Source: Escherichia coli (GTDB lineage Bacteria; Pseudomonadota; Gammaproteobacteria; Enterobacterales; Enterobacteriaceae). Taken from it: a stretch of DNA of 64,000 nucleotides. The position numbers and the translations under genes are program-made. Below, piece by piece: positions 3,166 to 62,644 of the stretch (its first letter is position 1; every line of letters starts with the position of its first letter). The DNA is taken from NCBI RefSeq assembly GCF_017348835.2, contig NZ_CP071375.1; one strand, written 5' to 3'. The notes below the pieces were generated by a model. It was not told where the DNA came from and did not search any database. It saw only the letters and a program-made list of their open reading frames with translations.

Positions 3166-6102
<2,937 letters not shown>

Positions 6103-14149: not shown

Positions 14150-14180
14150 TTAACCATTCCCATACAATTAGTTAACCAAA

Positions 14181-14211
14181 AAGGGGGGATTTTATCTCCC
14201 CTTTAATTTTT
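14181..14211 (+). terminator. Terminator-like hairpin after clpX (AGGGGGGAT-TTTA-TCTCCCCT followed by T-rich run)
   Basis: Imperfect G/C stem followed by TTTAATTTTT. Confidence 0.45.
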
Positions 14212-14226
14212 CCTCTATTCTCGGCG

Positions 14227-14253
14227 TTGAATGTGGGGGAAACATCCCCATAT
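14227..14253 (+). promoter_or_regulatory. Sigma-32 (heat-shock) promoter of lon: -35 TTGAAT, 13-bp spacer, -10 CCCCATAT
   Basis: Near-consensus sigma-32 elements read about 85-110 nt upstream of lon ATG; coordinates consistent with the lon start frame. Confidence 0.7.
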
Positions 14254-14336
14254 ACTGACGTACATGTTAATAGATGGCGTGAAGCACAGTCGTGTCATCT
14301 GATTACCTGGCGGAAATTAAACTAAGAGAGAGCTCT

Positions 14337-24330: not shown

Positions 24331-27877
<3,547 letters not shown>

Positions 27878-31907: not shown

Positions 31908-32021
31908 GGGGGCTCTGTTGGTTCTCCCGCAACGCTACTCTGTTTACCAGGTCAGGTCCGGAAGGAAGCAGCCAAGGCAGATGACGCGTGTGCCGGGATG
32001 TAGCTGGCAGGGCCCCCACCC
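31908..32021 (+). ncRNA. ffs: 4.5S RNA (signal recognition particle RNA), 114 nt
   Basis: Exact match to remembered 4.5S RNA sequence GGGGGCUCUGUUGGUUCUCCCGCAACGC...GGCAGGGCCCCCACCC; conserved SRP domain IV motif GGAAGGAAGCAGCC present; coordinates frame-checked against overlapping ORF-track translation. Confidence 0.95.
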
Positions 32022-47551: not shown

Positions 47552-48846
47552 ATGAGTTATCAGGTCTTAGCCCGAAAATGGCGCCCACAAACCTTTGCTG
47601 ACGTCGTCGGCCAGGAACATGTGCTGACCGCACTGGCGAACGGCTTGTCGTTAGGGCGTATTCATCATGCTTATCTTTTTTCCGGTACCCGTGGCGTCGG
47701 AAAAACCTCTATCGCCCGACTGCTGGCGAAGGGGCTAAACTGCGAAACCGGCATTACCGCGACGCCGTGCGGCGTGTGCGATAACTGTCGTGAAATCGAG
47801 CAGGGGCGCTTTGTCGATCTGATTGAAATCGACGCCGCCTCGCGCACCAAAGTTGAAGATACCCGCGACCTGCTGGATAACGTCCAGTACGCTCCGGCGC
47901 GTGGTCGTTTCAAAGTTTATCTCATCGACGAAGTGCATATGCTGTCGCGCCACAGCTTTAACGCACTGTTAAAAACTCTTGAAGAGCCGCCGGAGCACGT
48001 TAAGTTTCTGCTGGCGACGACCGATCCACAGAAATTGCCGGTGACGATTTTGTCGCGCTGTTTGCAATTTCATCTCAAGGCGCTGGATGTCGAGCAAATT
48101 CGCCATCAACTTGAGCACATCCTCAATGAAGAACATATCGCTCACGAGCCGCGGGCGCTGCAATTGCTGGCGCGCGCCGCTGAAGGCAGCCTGCGAGATG
48201 CCTTAAGTCTGACCGACCAGGCGATTGCCAGCGGTGACGGCCAGGTTTCAACCCAGGCGGTCAGTGCGATGCTGGGTACGCTTGACGACGATCAGGCGCT
48301 GTCGCTGGTTGAAGCGATGGTCGAGGCCAACGGCGAGCGCGTAATGGCACTGATTAATGAAACCGCTGCCCGTGGTATCGAGTGGGAAGCGTTGCTGGTG
48401 GAAATGCTCGGCTTGTTGCATCGTATTGCGATGGTACAACTTTCGCCTGCTGCACTTGGCAACGACATGGCCGCCATCGAGCTGCGGATGCGTGAACTGG
48501 CGCGCACCATACCGCCGACGGATATTCAGCTTTACTATCAGACGCTGTTGATTGGTCGCAAAGAATTACCGTATGCGCCGGACCGCCGTATGGGCGTTGA
48601 GATGACGCTGCTGCGCGCGCTGGCGTTCCATCCGCGTATGCCGCTGCCTGAGCCAGAAGTGCCACGCCAGTCCTTTGCACCCGTCGCGCCAACGGCAGTA
48701 ATGACGCCACCCCAGGTGCCGCCGCAACCGCAATCAGCGCCGCAGCAGGCACCGACTGTACCGCTCCCGGAAACCACCAGCCAGGTGCTGGCGGCGCGCC
48801 AGCAGTTGCAGCGCGTGCAGGGAGCAACCAAAGCAAAAAAGAGTGA
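47552..48846 (+). CDS. dnaX: DNA polymerase III gamma subunit, 431 aa, produced by programmed -1 frameshift at 48835-48841 then Glu and TGA stop at 48844-48846
   Basis: Slippery heptamer A AAA AAG in frame at codons 428-430; -1 frame reads GAG TGA immediately after; established mechanism. Confidence 0.85.
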
Positions 48847-49483
48847 ACCGGCAGCCGCTACCCGCGCGCGGCCGGTGAATAACGCTGCGCTGGAAAGACT
48901 GGCTTCGGTCACCGATCGCGTTCAGGCGCGTCCGGTGCCATCGGCGCTGGAAAAAGCGCCAGCCAAAAAAGAAGCGTATCGCTGGAAGGCGACCACTCCG
49001 GTGATGCAGCAAAAAGAAGTGGTCGCCACACCGAAGGCGCTGAAAAAAGCGCTGGAACATGAAAAAACGCCGGAACTGGCGGCGAAGCTGGCGGCAGAAG
49101 CCATTGAGCGCGACGCGTGGGCGGCTCAGGTGAGTCAACTTTCGCTACCAAAACTGGTCGAACAGGTGGCGTTAAATGCCTGGAAAGAGGAGAGTGATAA
49201 CGCAGTATGTTTGCATTTGCGCTCCTCTCAGCGGCATTTGAACAACCGCGGTGCACAGCAAAAACTGGCTGAAGCGTTGAGCATGTTAAAAGGTTCAACG
49301 GTTGAACTGACTATCGTTGAAGATGATAATCCCGCGGTGCGTACGCCGCTGGAGTGGCGTCAGGCGATATACGAAGAAAAACTTGCGCAGGCGCGCGAGT
49401 CCATTATTGCGGATAATAATATTCAGACCCTGCGTCGGTTTTTCGATGCGGAGCTGGATGAAGAAAGTATCCGCCCCATTTGA
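47552..49483 (+). CDS. dnaX: DNA polymerase III tau subunit DnaX, 643 aa (full-length product)
   Basis: ORF-track full length; Walker A GTRGVGKTS; zinc-binding CGVCDNC. Confidence 0.97.
   Translation: MSYQVLARKWRPQTFADVVGQEHVLTALANGLSLGRIHHAYLFSGTRGVGKTSIARLLAKGLNCETGITATPCGVCDNCREIEQGRFVDLIEIDAASRTKVEDTRDLLDNVQYAPARGRFKVYLIDEVHMLSRHSFNALLKTLEEPPEHVKFLLATTDPQKLPVTILSRCLQFHLKALDVEQIRHQLEHILNEEHIAHEPRALQLLARAAEGSLRDALSLTDQAIASGDGQVSTQAVSAMLGTLDDDQALSLVEAMVEANGERVMALINETAARGIEWEALLVEMLGLLHRIAMVQLSPAALGNDMAAIELRMRELARTIPPTDIQLYYQTLLIGRKELPYAPDRRMGVEMTLLRALAFHPRMPLPEPEVPRQSFAPVAPTAVMTPPQVPPQPQSAPQQAPTVPLPETTSQVLAARQQLQRVQGATKAKKSEPAAATRARPVNNAALERLASVTDRVQARPVPSALEKAPAKKEAYRWKATTPVMQQKEVVATPKALKKALEHEKTPELAAKLAAEAIERDAWAAQVSQLSLPKLVEQVALNAWKEESDNAVCLHLRSSQRHLNNRGAQQKLAEALSMLKGSTVELTIVEDDNPAVRTPLEWRQAIYEEKLAQARESIIADNNIQTLRRFFDAELDEESIRPI
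48835..48875 (+). other. dnaX: dnaX programmed ribosomal frameshift cassette: slippery site A_AAA_AAG (48835-48841) plus downstream stem-loop CCGGCAGCCGCTACCCGCGCGCGGCCGG (48848-48875)
   Basis: Heptamer and GC-rich hairpin 6 nt downstream read directly; frame verified from the dnaX start. Confidence 0.9.
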
Positions 49484-49520
49484 TCGTAAGCACAGCTTAC
49501 GTTCGTCATCCTTAACGTGA

Positions 49521-49864
<344 letters not shown>

Positions 49865-49865
<1 letters not shown>

Positions 49866-50470
49866 TGCAAACCAGCCCGCTGTTAACACAGCTTATGGAA
49901 GCACTGCGCTGTCTGCCGGGCGTTGGCCCGAAGTCGGCGCAGCGTATGGCGTTCACGCTGCTTCAGCGCGATCGTAGCGGCGGGATGCGTCTGGCGCAGG
50001 CGCTCACCCGGGCGATGTCGGAAATCGGCCACTGCGCCGATTGCCGCACTTTCACCGAACAGGAAGTCTGTAACATCTGTTCGAATCCGCGTCGTCAGGA
50101 AAACGGTCAAATCTGTGTGGTGGAGAGTCCGGCGGACATTTACGCCATTGAGCAGACGGGGCAGTTTTCAGGTCGTTATTTTGTGTTGATGGGGCATCTG
50201 TCACCGCTGGACGGCATCGGTCCGGATGATATCGGGCTTGATCGTCTGGAACAGCGTCTGGCAGAGGAAAAAATCACTGAAGTGATCCTCGCCACCAATC
50301 CCACGGTTGAAGGTGAAGCTACCGCTAACTACATTGCCGAGCTTTGCGCGCAATATGACGTGGAAGCCAGCCGAATCGCTCATGGCGTACCGGTTGGCGG
50401 CGAACTGGAAATGGTCGATGGCACCACGTTGTCGCATTCCCTTGCCGGGCGTCATAAGATTCGTTTTTAA
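49865..50470 (+). CDS. recR: Recombination protein RecR, 201 aa
   Basis: ORF-track full length; C4 zinc finger ([16 protein letters not shown]); Toprim region; start overlaps ybaB stop (TGATG). Confidence 0.96.
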
Positions 50471-50499
50471 GCAAACGAGAGCAGGATCACCTGCTCTCG

Positions 50500-50528
50500 C
50501 TTGAAATTATTCTCCCTTGTCCCCATCT
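50500..50528 (+). promoter_or_regulatory. Sigma-32 (heat-shock) promoter of htpG: -35 CTTGAAA, 15-bp spacer, -10 CCCCATCT
   Basis: Near-consensus sigma-32 elements read about 50-80 nt upstream of htpG ATG. Confidence 0.7.
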
Positions 50529-50579
50529 CTCCCTCATCCTGTTTTTAACCTTAAAATGGCATTATTGAGGTAGACCTAC

Positions 50580-52454
50580 ATGAAAGGACAAGAAACTCGT
50601 GGTTTTCAGTCAGAAGTGAAACAGCTTCTGCACCTGATGATCCATTCTCTCTATTCCAATAAAGAAATCTTCCTGCGTGAGCTTATCTCTAACGCCTCCG
50701 ATGCGGCGGACAAGCTGCGTTTCCGTGCGCTCTCTAACCCGGACCTGTACGAAGGTGATGGCGAACTGCGCGTTCGTGTCTCTTTCGATAAAGACAAGCG
50801 CACGCTGACCATCTCCGATAACGGCGTGGGGATGACCCGCGACGAAGTGATTGACCATCTGGGGACTATCGCTAAATCCGGTACCAAATCATTCCTCAAA
50901 TCCCTGGGTTCTGACCAGGCGAAAGACAGCCAGCTGATCGGTCAGTTTGGTGTTGGTTTCTACTCTGCGTTTATCGTGGCCGACAAAGTGACCGTGCGTA
51001 CTCGCGCGGCAGGCGAAAAACCACAAAATGGCGTCTTCTGGGAATCGGCTGGCGAAGGTGAATACACCGTTGCCGACATCACCAAAGAAGATCGTGGTAC
51101 TGAAATCACCCTGCATCTGCGTGAAGGCGAAGACGAGTTCCTCGATGACTGGCGCGTGCGTTCCATCATCAGCAAATACTCCGACCATATCGCGCTGCCG
51201 GTAGAGATCGAAAAACGCGAAGAGAAAGATGGCGAAACCGTTATCTCCTGGGAAAAAATCAACAAAGCGCAGGCGCTGTGGACTCGTAACAAGTCGGAAA
51301 TCACCGATGAAGAGTATAAAGAGTTCTACAAACACATCGCCCACGACTTTAACGATCCGCTGACCTGGAGCCACAACCGCGTTGAAGGTAAGCAGGAGTA
51401 CACCAGCCTGCTGTACATCCCGTCCCAGGCTCCGTGGGATATGTGGAACCGTGATCATAAACACGGCCTGAAACTGTATGTTCAGCGTGTGTTCATCATG
51501 GACGACGCAGAACAGTTCATGCCGAACTATCTGCGCTTCGTGCGTGGTCTGATTGACTCCAGCGATCTGCCGCTGAACGTTTCCCGTGAAATCCTCCAGG
51601 ACAGCACGGTAACGCGTAACCTGCGCAATGCGCTGACCAAGCGTGTGCTGCAAATGCTGGAAAAACTGGCGAAAGACGACGCGGAAAAATACCAGACCTT
51701 CTGGCAACAGTTTGGCCTGGTACTGAAAGAAGGTCCGGCGGAAGATTTCGCTAACCAGGAAGCGATCGCCAAACTGCTGCGTTTTGCTTCTACTCATACC
51801 GATTCTTCTGCGCAGACCGTGTCCCTGGAAGACTACGTTTCCCGCATGAAAGAAGGGCAGGAGAAAATCTACTACATCACTGCAGACAGCTATGCGGCAG
51901 CGAAGAGCAGCCCGCACCTGGAACTGCTGCGTAAGAAAGGCATCGAAGTTCTGCTGCTTTCCGACCGCATCGATGAGTGGATGATGAACTATCTGACTGA
52001 GTTCGACGGTAAACCGTTCCAGTCGGTGTCTAAAGTTGACGAGTCGCTGGAAAAACTGGCTGACGAAGTTGATGAGAGCGCGAAAGAAGCGGAGAAAGCA
52101 CTGACTCCGTTCATCGACCGTGTGAAAGCCCTGCTCGGCGAGCGCGTGAAAGATGTCCGTCTGACTCACCGTCTGACCGATACGCCAGCGATCGTTTCGA
52201 CCGACGCGGACGAAATGAGCACTCAGATGGCGAAACTGTTCGCTGCGGCGGGCCAGAAAGTGCCAGAAGTGAAATACATCTTCGAACTGAACCCGGATCA
52301 CGTACTGGTGAAACGTGCGGCAGATACTGAAGATGAAGCGAAGTTCAGCGAGTGGGTAGAACTGCTGCTGGATCAGGCGCTGCTGGCAGAACGCGGCACG
52401 CTGGAAGATCCGAACCTGTTTATTCGTCGTATGAACCAGCTGCTGGTTTCCTGA
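50580..52454 (+). CDS. htpG: Chaperone HtpG (Hsp90), 624 aa
   Basis: ORF-track full length; GHKL ATPase N-terminal motifs ([17 protein letters not shown]). Confidence 0.97.
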
Positions 52455-53410: not shown

Positions 53411-54373
53411 ATGCGTCAGACTAAAACCGGTATCCTGCTGGCAAACCTGGGTACGCCCGATGCCCCCACACCTGAAGCGGTAAAACGCTATCTGAAACAA
53501 TTTTTAAGCGACAGACGCGTGGTTGATACCTCACGGTTGTTATGGTGGCCATTGCTGCGCGGCGTGATTTTGCCGCTGCGCTCGCCGCGTGTGGCGAAGC
53601 TGTATGCCTCTGTCTGGATGGAAGGTGGCTCGCCACTGATGGTTTACAGCCGCCAGCAACAGCAGGCGCTGGCACAACGTTTACCGGAGACGCCCGTAGC
53701 GCTGGGAATGAGCTACGGCTCGCCATCACTGGAAAGCGCCGTAGACGAACTCCTGGCAGAGCATGTAGATCATATTGTGGTGCTGCCGCTTTATCCGCAA
53801 TTCTCCTGTTCTACGGTCGGTGCGGTATGGGATGAACTGGCACGCATTCTGGCGCGCAAACGTAGCATTCCGGGGATATCGTTTATACGTGATTACGCCG
53901 ATAACCACGATTACATTAATGCACTGGCGAACAGCGTACGCACTTCTTTTGCCAAACATGGCGAACCGGATCTGCTACTGCTCTCTTATCATGGCATTCC
54001 CCAGCGTTATGCAGATGAAGGCGATGATTACCCGCAACGTTGCCGCACAACGACTCGTGAACTGGCTTCCGCATTGGGGATGGCACCGGAAAAAGTGATG
54101 ATGACCTTTCAGTCGCGCTTTGGTCGGGAACCCTGGCTGATGCCTTATACCGACGAAACGCTGAAAATGCTCGGAGAAAAAGGCGTAGGTCATATTCAGG
54201 TGATGTGTCCGGGCTTTGCTGCGGATTGTCTGGAGACGCTGGAAGAGATTGCCGAGCAAAACCGTGAGGTCTTCCTCGGTGCCGGCGGGAAAAAATATGA
54301 ATATATTCCGGCGCTTAATGCCACGCCGGAACATATCGAAATGATGGCTAATCTTGTTGCCGAGTATCGCTAA
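53411..54373 (+). CDS. hemH: Ferrochelatase HemH, 320 aa
   Basis: ORF-track full length; [28 protein letters not shown]. Confidence 0.95.
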
Positions 54374-56794: not shown

Positions 56795-56890
56795 GGTTCG
56801 TAGGCCAGATAAGGCGTTCACGCCGCATCTGGCATTTGGCATCTCGATGCCTGATGCGACGCTGGCGCGTCTTATCATGCCTACATATTT
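56795..56890. repeat. REP/BIME: two inverted REP units after gsk
   Basis: GTAGGCCAGATAAGGCGTTCACGCCGCATCTGGCA and GATGCCTGATGCGACGCTGGCGCGTCTTATCATGCCTAC. Confidence 0.8.
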
Positions 56891-62560: not shown

Positions 62561-62644
62561 ACACCGTCGCTTAAAGTGACGGCATAATAATAAAAAAATG
62601 AAATTCCTCTTTGACGGGCCAATAGCGATATTGGCCATTTTTTT
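62561..62644 (+). ncRNA. chiX: ChiX (MicM/SroB) Hfq-dependent small RNA, about 84 nt, with terminator hairpin GGCCAATAGCGATATTGGCC plus U7
   Basis: Sequence ACACCGTCGCTTAAAGTGACGGCATAATAATAAAAAAATGAAATTCCTCTTTGACGGGCCAATAGCGATATTGGCCATTTTTTT matches remembered ChiX including seed CUCUUUGACGGG; coordinates frame-checked. Confidence 0.9.

Follow-up and report, generated by a model that had tools for sequence, protein, structure and literature searches.

The closest described counterpart of the gene junction studied here is the same locus in Escherichia coli K-12, in which, according to the work of Mahdi & Lloyd (1989, NAR 17:6781) and Yeung (1990, J Bacteriol 172:6042) as it is presented in a later review (PMC9610160), ybaB (orf12) and recR stand in the order dnaX-ybaB-recR-htpG and share an A. 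According to the review, a single A is both the final base of the ybaB stop codon and the initial base of the recR start codon; it finds no ribosome-binding site near the recR ATG and, citing the two older papers, takes the overlap as an indication of coupled translation. It also warns that mutations in ybaB can be polar on recR (PMC9610160).

Overlaps of this kind have been studied more generally. Among 2.66 million prokaryotic gene pairs, −4 and −1 were the commonest intergenic distances, −1 being the second (PMC10666635), and overlapping pairs were enriched for subunits of heteromeric complexes (PMC10666635). Overlapping ATGA and TGATG pairs are known to be coupled by termination-reinitiation (PMC6728339, PMC10666635), and ybaB and recR are likewise co-directional at a distance of −1 nt, although they were not among the pairs tested experimentally in these studies. 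Using reporters, Huber et al. (2019, PMC6728339) obtained termination-reinitiation coupling in four of five E. coli pairs with −4 or −1 overlaps, and the contribution of the Shine-Dalgarno (SD) sequence varied between the pairs, its removal costing much of the reinitiation in four of five. In contrast, the overlapping pair bioBF showed no coupling, and its initiation was de novo even with a very weak SD (PMC6728339). Coupling drops steeply with intergenic distance (Huber 2023, PMC10666635), and a distance between −8 and +10 nt was treated by Huber et al. as predictive of termination-reinitiation (PMC10666635).

The DNA analysed here, called the window, is a stretch of 64,000 nucleotides from E. 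coli (contig NZ_CP071375.1) in which the cluster runs apt-dnaX-ybaB-recR-htpG; the RefSeq gene list for the region is priC, ybaN, apt, dnaX, ybaB, recR, htpG, adk and hemH. The dnaX gene for DNA polymerase III tau/gamma (47552-49483, + strand) is recognised by its ORF, by a match of 981 bits to NF005942 and by RefSeq, and its stop lies 52 nt ahead of the ybaB ATG. For the ORF ending at 49865, the ATG at 49536 was taken as the biologically sensible start, which gives a ybaB coding sequence (49536-49865, + strand; same coordinates in RefSeq) for a YbaB/EbfC nucleoid-associated protein of 109 residues, of which residues 1-105 match profile positions 2-104 of TIGR00103 with 142.3 bits (cutoff 49.45). 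The recR coding sequence (49865-50470, + strand; RefSeq WP_001195025.1) encodes the recombination mediator RecR of 201 residues. It matches TIGR00615 with 282.4 bits (cutoff 162.55), residues 2-197 falling on profile positions 2-196, and in the PDB it matches the RecR of Pseudomonas aeruginosa (5z2v) at E = 7e-81 as well as 11 further RecR chains. Both proteins thus match their families over the full length and above the curated cutoffs, and the order on the + strand is dnaX, then ybaB and, immediately next to it, recR. The gene names and the position downstream of dnaX that an earlier note on this DNA had given are correct by ORFs, profile matches and RefSeq alike.

Read directly from the sequence, positions 49863-49867 (+ strand) are TGATG. 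The ybaB stop codon TGA (49863-49865) and the recR start codon ATG (49865-49867) have the base A49865 in common, and the overlap of these co-directional neighbours is exactly 1 nt, one of the two overlap lengths (1 or 4 nt) looked for as a stop/start overlap. In RefSeq, one base (locus position 3966, window 49865) is both the last of ybaB and the first of recR, and the 1-base overlap is annotated in three E. coli strains, so the overlap claimed in the earlier note is exact to the base in sequence, ORFs and annotation. Taken alone, the TGATG pentamer is statistically meaningless: on the + strand of the window it occurs 137 times, compared to about 61 occurrences expected from base composition. 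The site is more than chance because of its context, in which a full-length YbaB ends where a full-length RecR begins, and ybaB/recR is the sole 1-nt stop/start overlap among the 28 pairs of neighbouring co-directional genes in 50 kb of the region. A fusion of YbaB and RecR by frameshift or readthrough was considered as well and set aside, as there is no slippery motif around TTC-TGA-TGC.

The only other co-directional overlap in these 50 kb is one of 8 nt between mdlA and mdlB (26096-26103, + strand), the halves of an ABC transporter; these coordinates were transferred from the RefSeq record of strain PE164, a strain colinear with the window. RefSeq also has a 4-nt overlap (54370-54373) between the 3' ends of aes and hemH, which are convergent. 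Inside dnaX, the DnaX programmed −1 ribosomal frameshifting element is found at 48816-48880 (+ strand; Rfam RF00382, 96.8 bits; also in RefSeq), a known signal that yields the gamma subunit. The Rfam search at the gathering threshold further placed four small RNAs in the window, namely sraA (14170-14265, − strand), the 4.5S/SRP RNA ffs (31916-32012, + strand), the nucleoid-associated ncRNA naRNA4 (56803-56881, + strand) and sroB (62561-62644, + strand).

The overlap exists only if recR starts at 49865, and a mis-assigned start would remove it: the next canonical start downstream is Met11, an in-frame ATG at 49895, and with this as the true start the two genes would not overlap. We consider this extremely improbable. 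In the recR frame, the ATG at 49865 is the first ATG, GTG or TTG to follow the in-frame stop before it, and the ORF list gives no recR start further upstream. Residues 1-197 of the P. aeruginosa RecR 5z2v align to residues 1-199 of the query, with its N-terminus MSFSPLIRQLIESLR aligned to the query N-terminus, and the alignment of Deinococcus radiodurans RecR to the query begins at its residue 3. The RecR N-termini of Photorhabdus, Citrobacter, Vibrio, Shewanella, Pseudoalteromonas and Amphritea have one common aligned start position. The first ten residues are conserved as protein, MQTSPLL being identical in Photorhabdus and Citrobacter, and the match to the TIGR00615 profile begins already at residue 2. 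Shewanella, Pseudoalteromonas and Amphritea have Ile at position 11, and Met11 therefore does not have the status of a conserved initiator. Finally, anti-SD pairing before 49895 has an energy of +1.5 kcal/mol, that is, no SD precedes this codon. Orthologue and profile alignment together with the missing SD led us to reject Met11, and since the orthologue alignment, which the earlier note had named as the evidence that could overturn its start, gives no better start downstream, the start at 49865 stands.

SD strength was calculated as the anti-SD duplex energy over positions −20 to −4 before the start codon. It was −5.5 kcal/mol for the ybaB ATG at 49536, where an SD-like GAGAGAG lies 6 nt upstream (49523-49529, + strand) and where the review also gives a putative ribosome-binding site (PMC9610160), and −6.9 kcal/mol for the htpG ATG at 50580. 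The recR ATG at 49865 reached only −1.5 kcal/mol, and recR is therefore essentially without a recognisable ribosome-binding site. The K-12 junction papers, to the extent that the review relays them (PMC9610160), likewise see no ribosome-binding site close to the recR ATG, and they propose that translation is coupled. Because the recR AUG shares a base of the stop codon and has no SD of its own, RecR would be made mainly by re-initiating ribosomes. In such a process ybaB and recR would be read from one mRNA, a co-transcription for which the literature gives support; a ribosome translating ybaB would terminate at the UGA at 49863-49865, and the post-termination ribosome would re-initiate on the spot at the recR AUG at 49865-49867. 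The output of RecR would then be tied to the translation of YbaB and presumably amount to a modest fraction of the YbaB output. We regard termination-reinitiation at the overlapping AUG as probably the main route to RecR, in line with other E. coli −4/−1 pairs that couple in this way (PMC6728339, PMC10666635). On the other hand, a junction without an SD may re-initiate poorly, given the losses from SD removal in four of five pairs (Huber 2019), and bioBF demonstrates that an overlapping pair can be entirely uncoupled (PMC6728339).

The example of bioBF also favours another explanation, namely that the overlap is mere genome compaction and that recR is initiated de novo and independently of an SD at the AUG at 49865, the translation of the upstream gene being irrelevant. 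bioBF is an E. coli pair with a very weak SD (PMC6728339). The lack of an SD before recR (−1.5 kcal/mol) speaks against initiation of this kind, as does the predicted fold, in which the recR AUG lies in paired sequence. We find this explanation unlikely, also in view of the mutant and conservation data discussed below.

The predicted fold is the basis of a third explanation, in which mRNA structure hides the recR AUG, ribosomes finishing ybaB melt the structure and fresh 30S subunits initiate on the exposed site. The minimum free energy fold of 49806-49925 has −41.5 kcal/mol, a long-range helix (49841-49847 with 49915-49921) encloses the junction, and the recR AUG is partly paired. However, compared with shuffled sequence the gain in stability is marginal (z = −1.93, with 10 of 200 shuffles at least as stable), so that the fold deserves little weight, and without an SD the recruitment of fresh 30S subunits would stay weak. 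Unmasking as the main route to RecR is thus very improbable in our estimate, and reinitiation by the terminating ribosome is preferred also here.

Termination-reinitiation presupposes that both genes are on one transcript. The review assigns ybaB and recR to a single transcription unit whose promoter lies within dnaX, and it states that a functional internal promoter was demonstrated there by reporter fusion (PMC9610160). In our consensus scan for promoters and terminators (48900-50620), no promoter-like or terminator-like sites were found on the + strand inside ybaB or recR, nor anywhere else between 49331 and 50620. The lone + strand promoter match in the scanned range is a sigma-70-like TTGAAC-17-GATAAT within the dnaX 3' end, ahead of ybaB (49302-49330); one match is no more than chance, for which 0.9 would be expected, and the site is a candidate for the published internal promoter of ybaB-recR. 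Six nucleotides past the recR stop begins a perfect inverted repeat, read from the sequence, with a 10-bp stem and a 4-nt loop (CGAGAGCAGG-ATCA-CCTGCTCTCG; 50476-50499, + strand). No T-run follows the stem, and for this reason the repeat was not called by the terminator scan. The ybaB-recR transcription unit may end here, before htpG.

Mutant data from the literature bear on the dependence of RecR on ybaB. The Keio ybaB deletion is UV-sensitive through low RecR and not through the absence of YbaB (Mateus and colleagues, PMC8547470), and by design its ybaB replacement retains the last 21 nt of ybaB including the TGATG (PMC8547470). The low RecR in this strain is in keeping with termination-reinitiation, and since RecR falls although the TGATG and the last 21 nt are in place (PMC8547470), the observation is at odds with de novo initiation at the overlap. 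However, the low RecR could also stem from transcriptional polarity or from destabilisation of the mRNA. In the literature examined, which covered the papers of 1989-90 through the review, no direct test of ybaB-recR coupling, such as a premature ybaB stop with RecR as the readout, was found. Together, the published reading (PMC9610160), the missing SD and the low RecR in the ybaB deletion support the interpretation of the overlap as translational coupling that the earlier note had offered, and we infer coupling from the sequence and from these indirect data.

Within E. coli the junction is highly conserved. The 1.2 kb around it match 5424 of 5426 complete genomes at 95-100% identity, and strain PE164 is 100% identical to the window over 1201 bp. 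Over the 40 nt centred on the junction, 5125 of the 5424 genomes do not differ at all, and the other 299 differ in one or two bases. Strain E5, the one such variant that was inspected, has a substitution near the junction and keeps the annotated 1-base overlap and an identical RecR. In strain M70 (NZ_CP080118.1, 137-445), a 21-nt in-frame deletion has shortened ybaB to 309 nt compared to 330 nt, resulting in a distinct protein (WP_219795248.1), and the 1-base overlap and the RecR protein are unchanged.

For a wider comparison, one genome per species was surveyed with the RecR helix-hairpin-helix motif PG[VI]GPK[ST]AQR as a degenerate DNA pattern. This yielded 120 loci, with a RecR match in 116, and 108 loci had at least 400 nt of upstream sequence. 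The adjacency counts cover ybaB-recR only. Of the 108 species, 74 carry a ybaB homologue immediately before recR in the same orientation, and no ybaB homologue was detected around recR in the fetched locus of the other 34, where a very divergent YbaB could be missed. Species without ybaB at recR were mostly Actinomycetes (e.g. Microbacteriaceae and Nanopelagicaceae) and several cyanobacteria. The linkage of ybaB and recR is therefore common but far from universal. The recR start was taken as the start codon nearest to the position aligned to E. coli Met1, which is a heuristic, and the same anti-SD sequence served for every phylum, so the gaps and SD energies of single loci are approximate.

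Among the 74 linked loci the junction distance was −1 nt in six, −4 nt in two and −14 nt in one, from 0 to 10 nt in 27, from 11 to 25 nt in 15, from 26 to 60 nt in 11 and over 60 nt in 12, with a median of 11.5 nt. SD strength before recR grows with the size of the gap, as far as the small numbers go: for overlaps the median SD energy was −2.2 kcal/mol, with 1 of 9 loci at or below −4.4 kcal/mol, and for gaps over 25 nt it was −5.1 kcal/mol, with 52% of the loci at or below that value. Such a trend is expected if tight junctions use reinitiation and loose ones an SD of their own, and together with the 35 of 74 junctions that lie within −8 to +10 nt it argues for termination-reinitiation. The survey also holds evidence on the opposite side, as outside Enterobacterales the exact overlap is not kept and the −1 distance occurs in only the six species mentioned. 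Gaps of more than 20 nt were present in 24 of the 74 species, and RecR can therefore be expressed without coupling elsewhere, which together with the lineage-specific nature of the exact overlap is compatible with the view that the overlap is compaction only. One locus, that of Vibrio mexicanus (NZ_JYJP01000106.1), was mis-scored in the survey owing to an apparent frameshift in the 5' end of recR, a normal-looking start (ATGCGAACCAGCCATATGCTGGAACAATTGATGGAG...) lying out of frame 34 nt past the ybaB stop; either the assembly is in error here or recR is a pseudogene.

In both Enterobacterales of the sample, Citrobacter werkmanii and Photorhabdus caribbeanensis, the junction reads identically as ...AAGATGCC(G/A)TTCTGATGCAAACCAG.... 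The identity of their recR to that of E. coli at third codon positions is 0.68 in Citrobacter and 0.40 in Photorhabdus, and the TGATG has therefore been maintained across nearly saturated synonymous divergence, which speaks against an overlap of no importance for translation. The preservation of TGATG in these two genera and in the M70 strain with its shortened ybaB is in favour of termination-reinitiation. In Vibrio, Shewanella and Pseudoalteromonas, ybaB ends with TAA and 7-14 nt follow before recR. The exact TGATG was also found in Marinicella, in a gammaproteobacterial MAG and in the betaproteobacterium Accumulibacter, and TAATG in one Bacillota MAG. The exact form without an SD thus appears to be lineage-restricted within a generally tight ybaB-recR junction. 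It could be proposed that this form is a derived and selectively maintained device of Enterobacterales that has replaced an ancestral short gap with a weak SD and holds RecR synthesis at a low, constant proportion of that of YbaB, but we think this unlikely. If it were true, it would imply a functional need to match the level of the RecFOR mediator to YbaB, or a co-translational contact of YbaB and RecR. In the literature examined, no report of a YbaB-RecR complex was found, while overlapping pairs are otherwise enriched for subunits of complexes.

The practical relevance of the junction is small. It explains polar recR phenotypes of ybaB knock-outs, such as the UV sensitivity of the Keio ybaB mutant (PMC8547470), and calls for caution when DNA-repair functions are assigned to YbaB/EbfC. 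In addition, it is an example of how a recombination mediator of low abundance can be expressed without a ribosome-binding site of its own.

Compared to the known systems, the ybaB-recR junction is real but ordinary, since −1 overlaps are among the commonest gene junctions in prokaryotes. The synteny of the window is shared with dnaX-ebfC-recR in Bacillus subtilis (PMC12539628) and ybaB-recR in Haemophilus influenzae. In other bacteria with this synteny the type of junction varies and an SD is more often present at wide gaps, in contrast to the TGATG without an SD seen here. In most overlapping pairs the upstream gene harbours an SD (PMC6728339), whereas ybaB-recR has none. Both the overlap and its reading as coupling are already known, published in 1989-90 and reviewed in 2022, and between the window and the described junction of E. 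coli K-12 there is no difference of substance, the window representing at most another strain.
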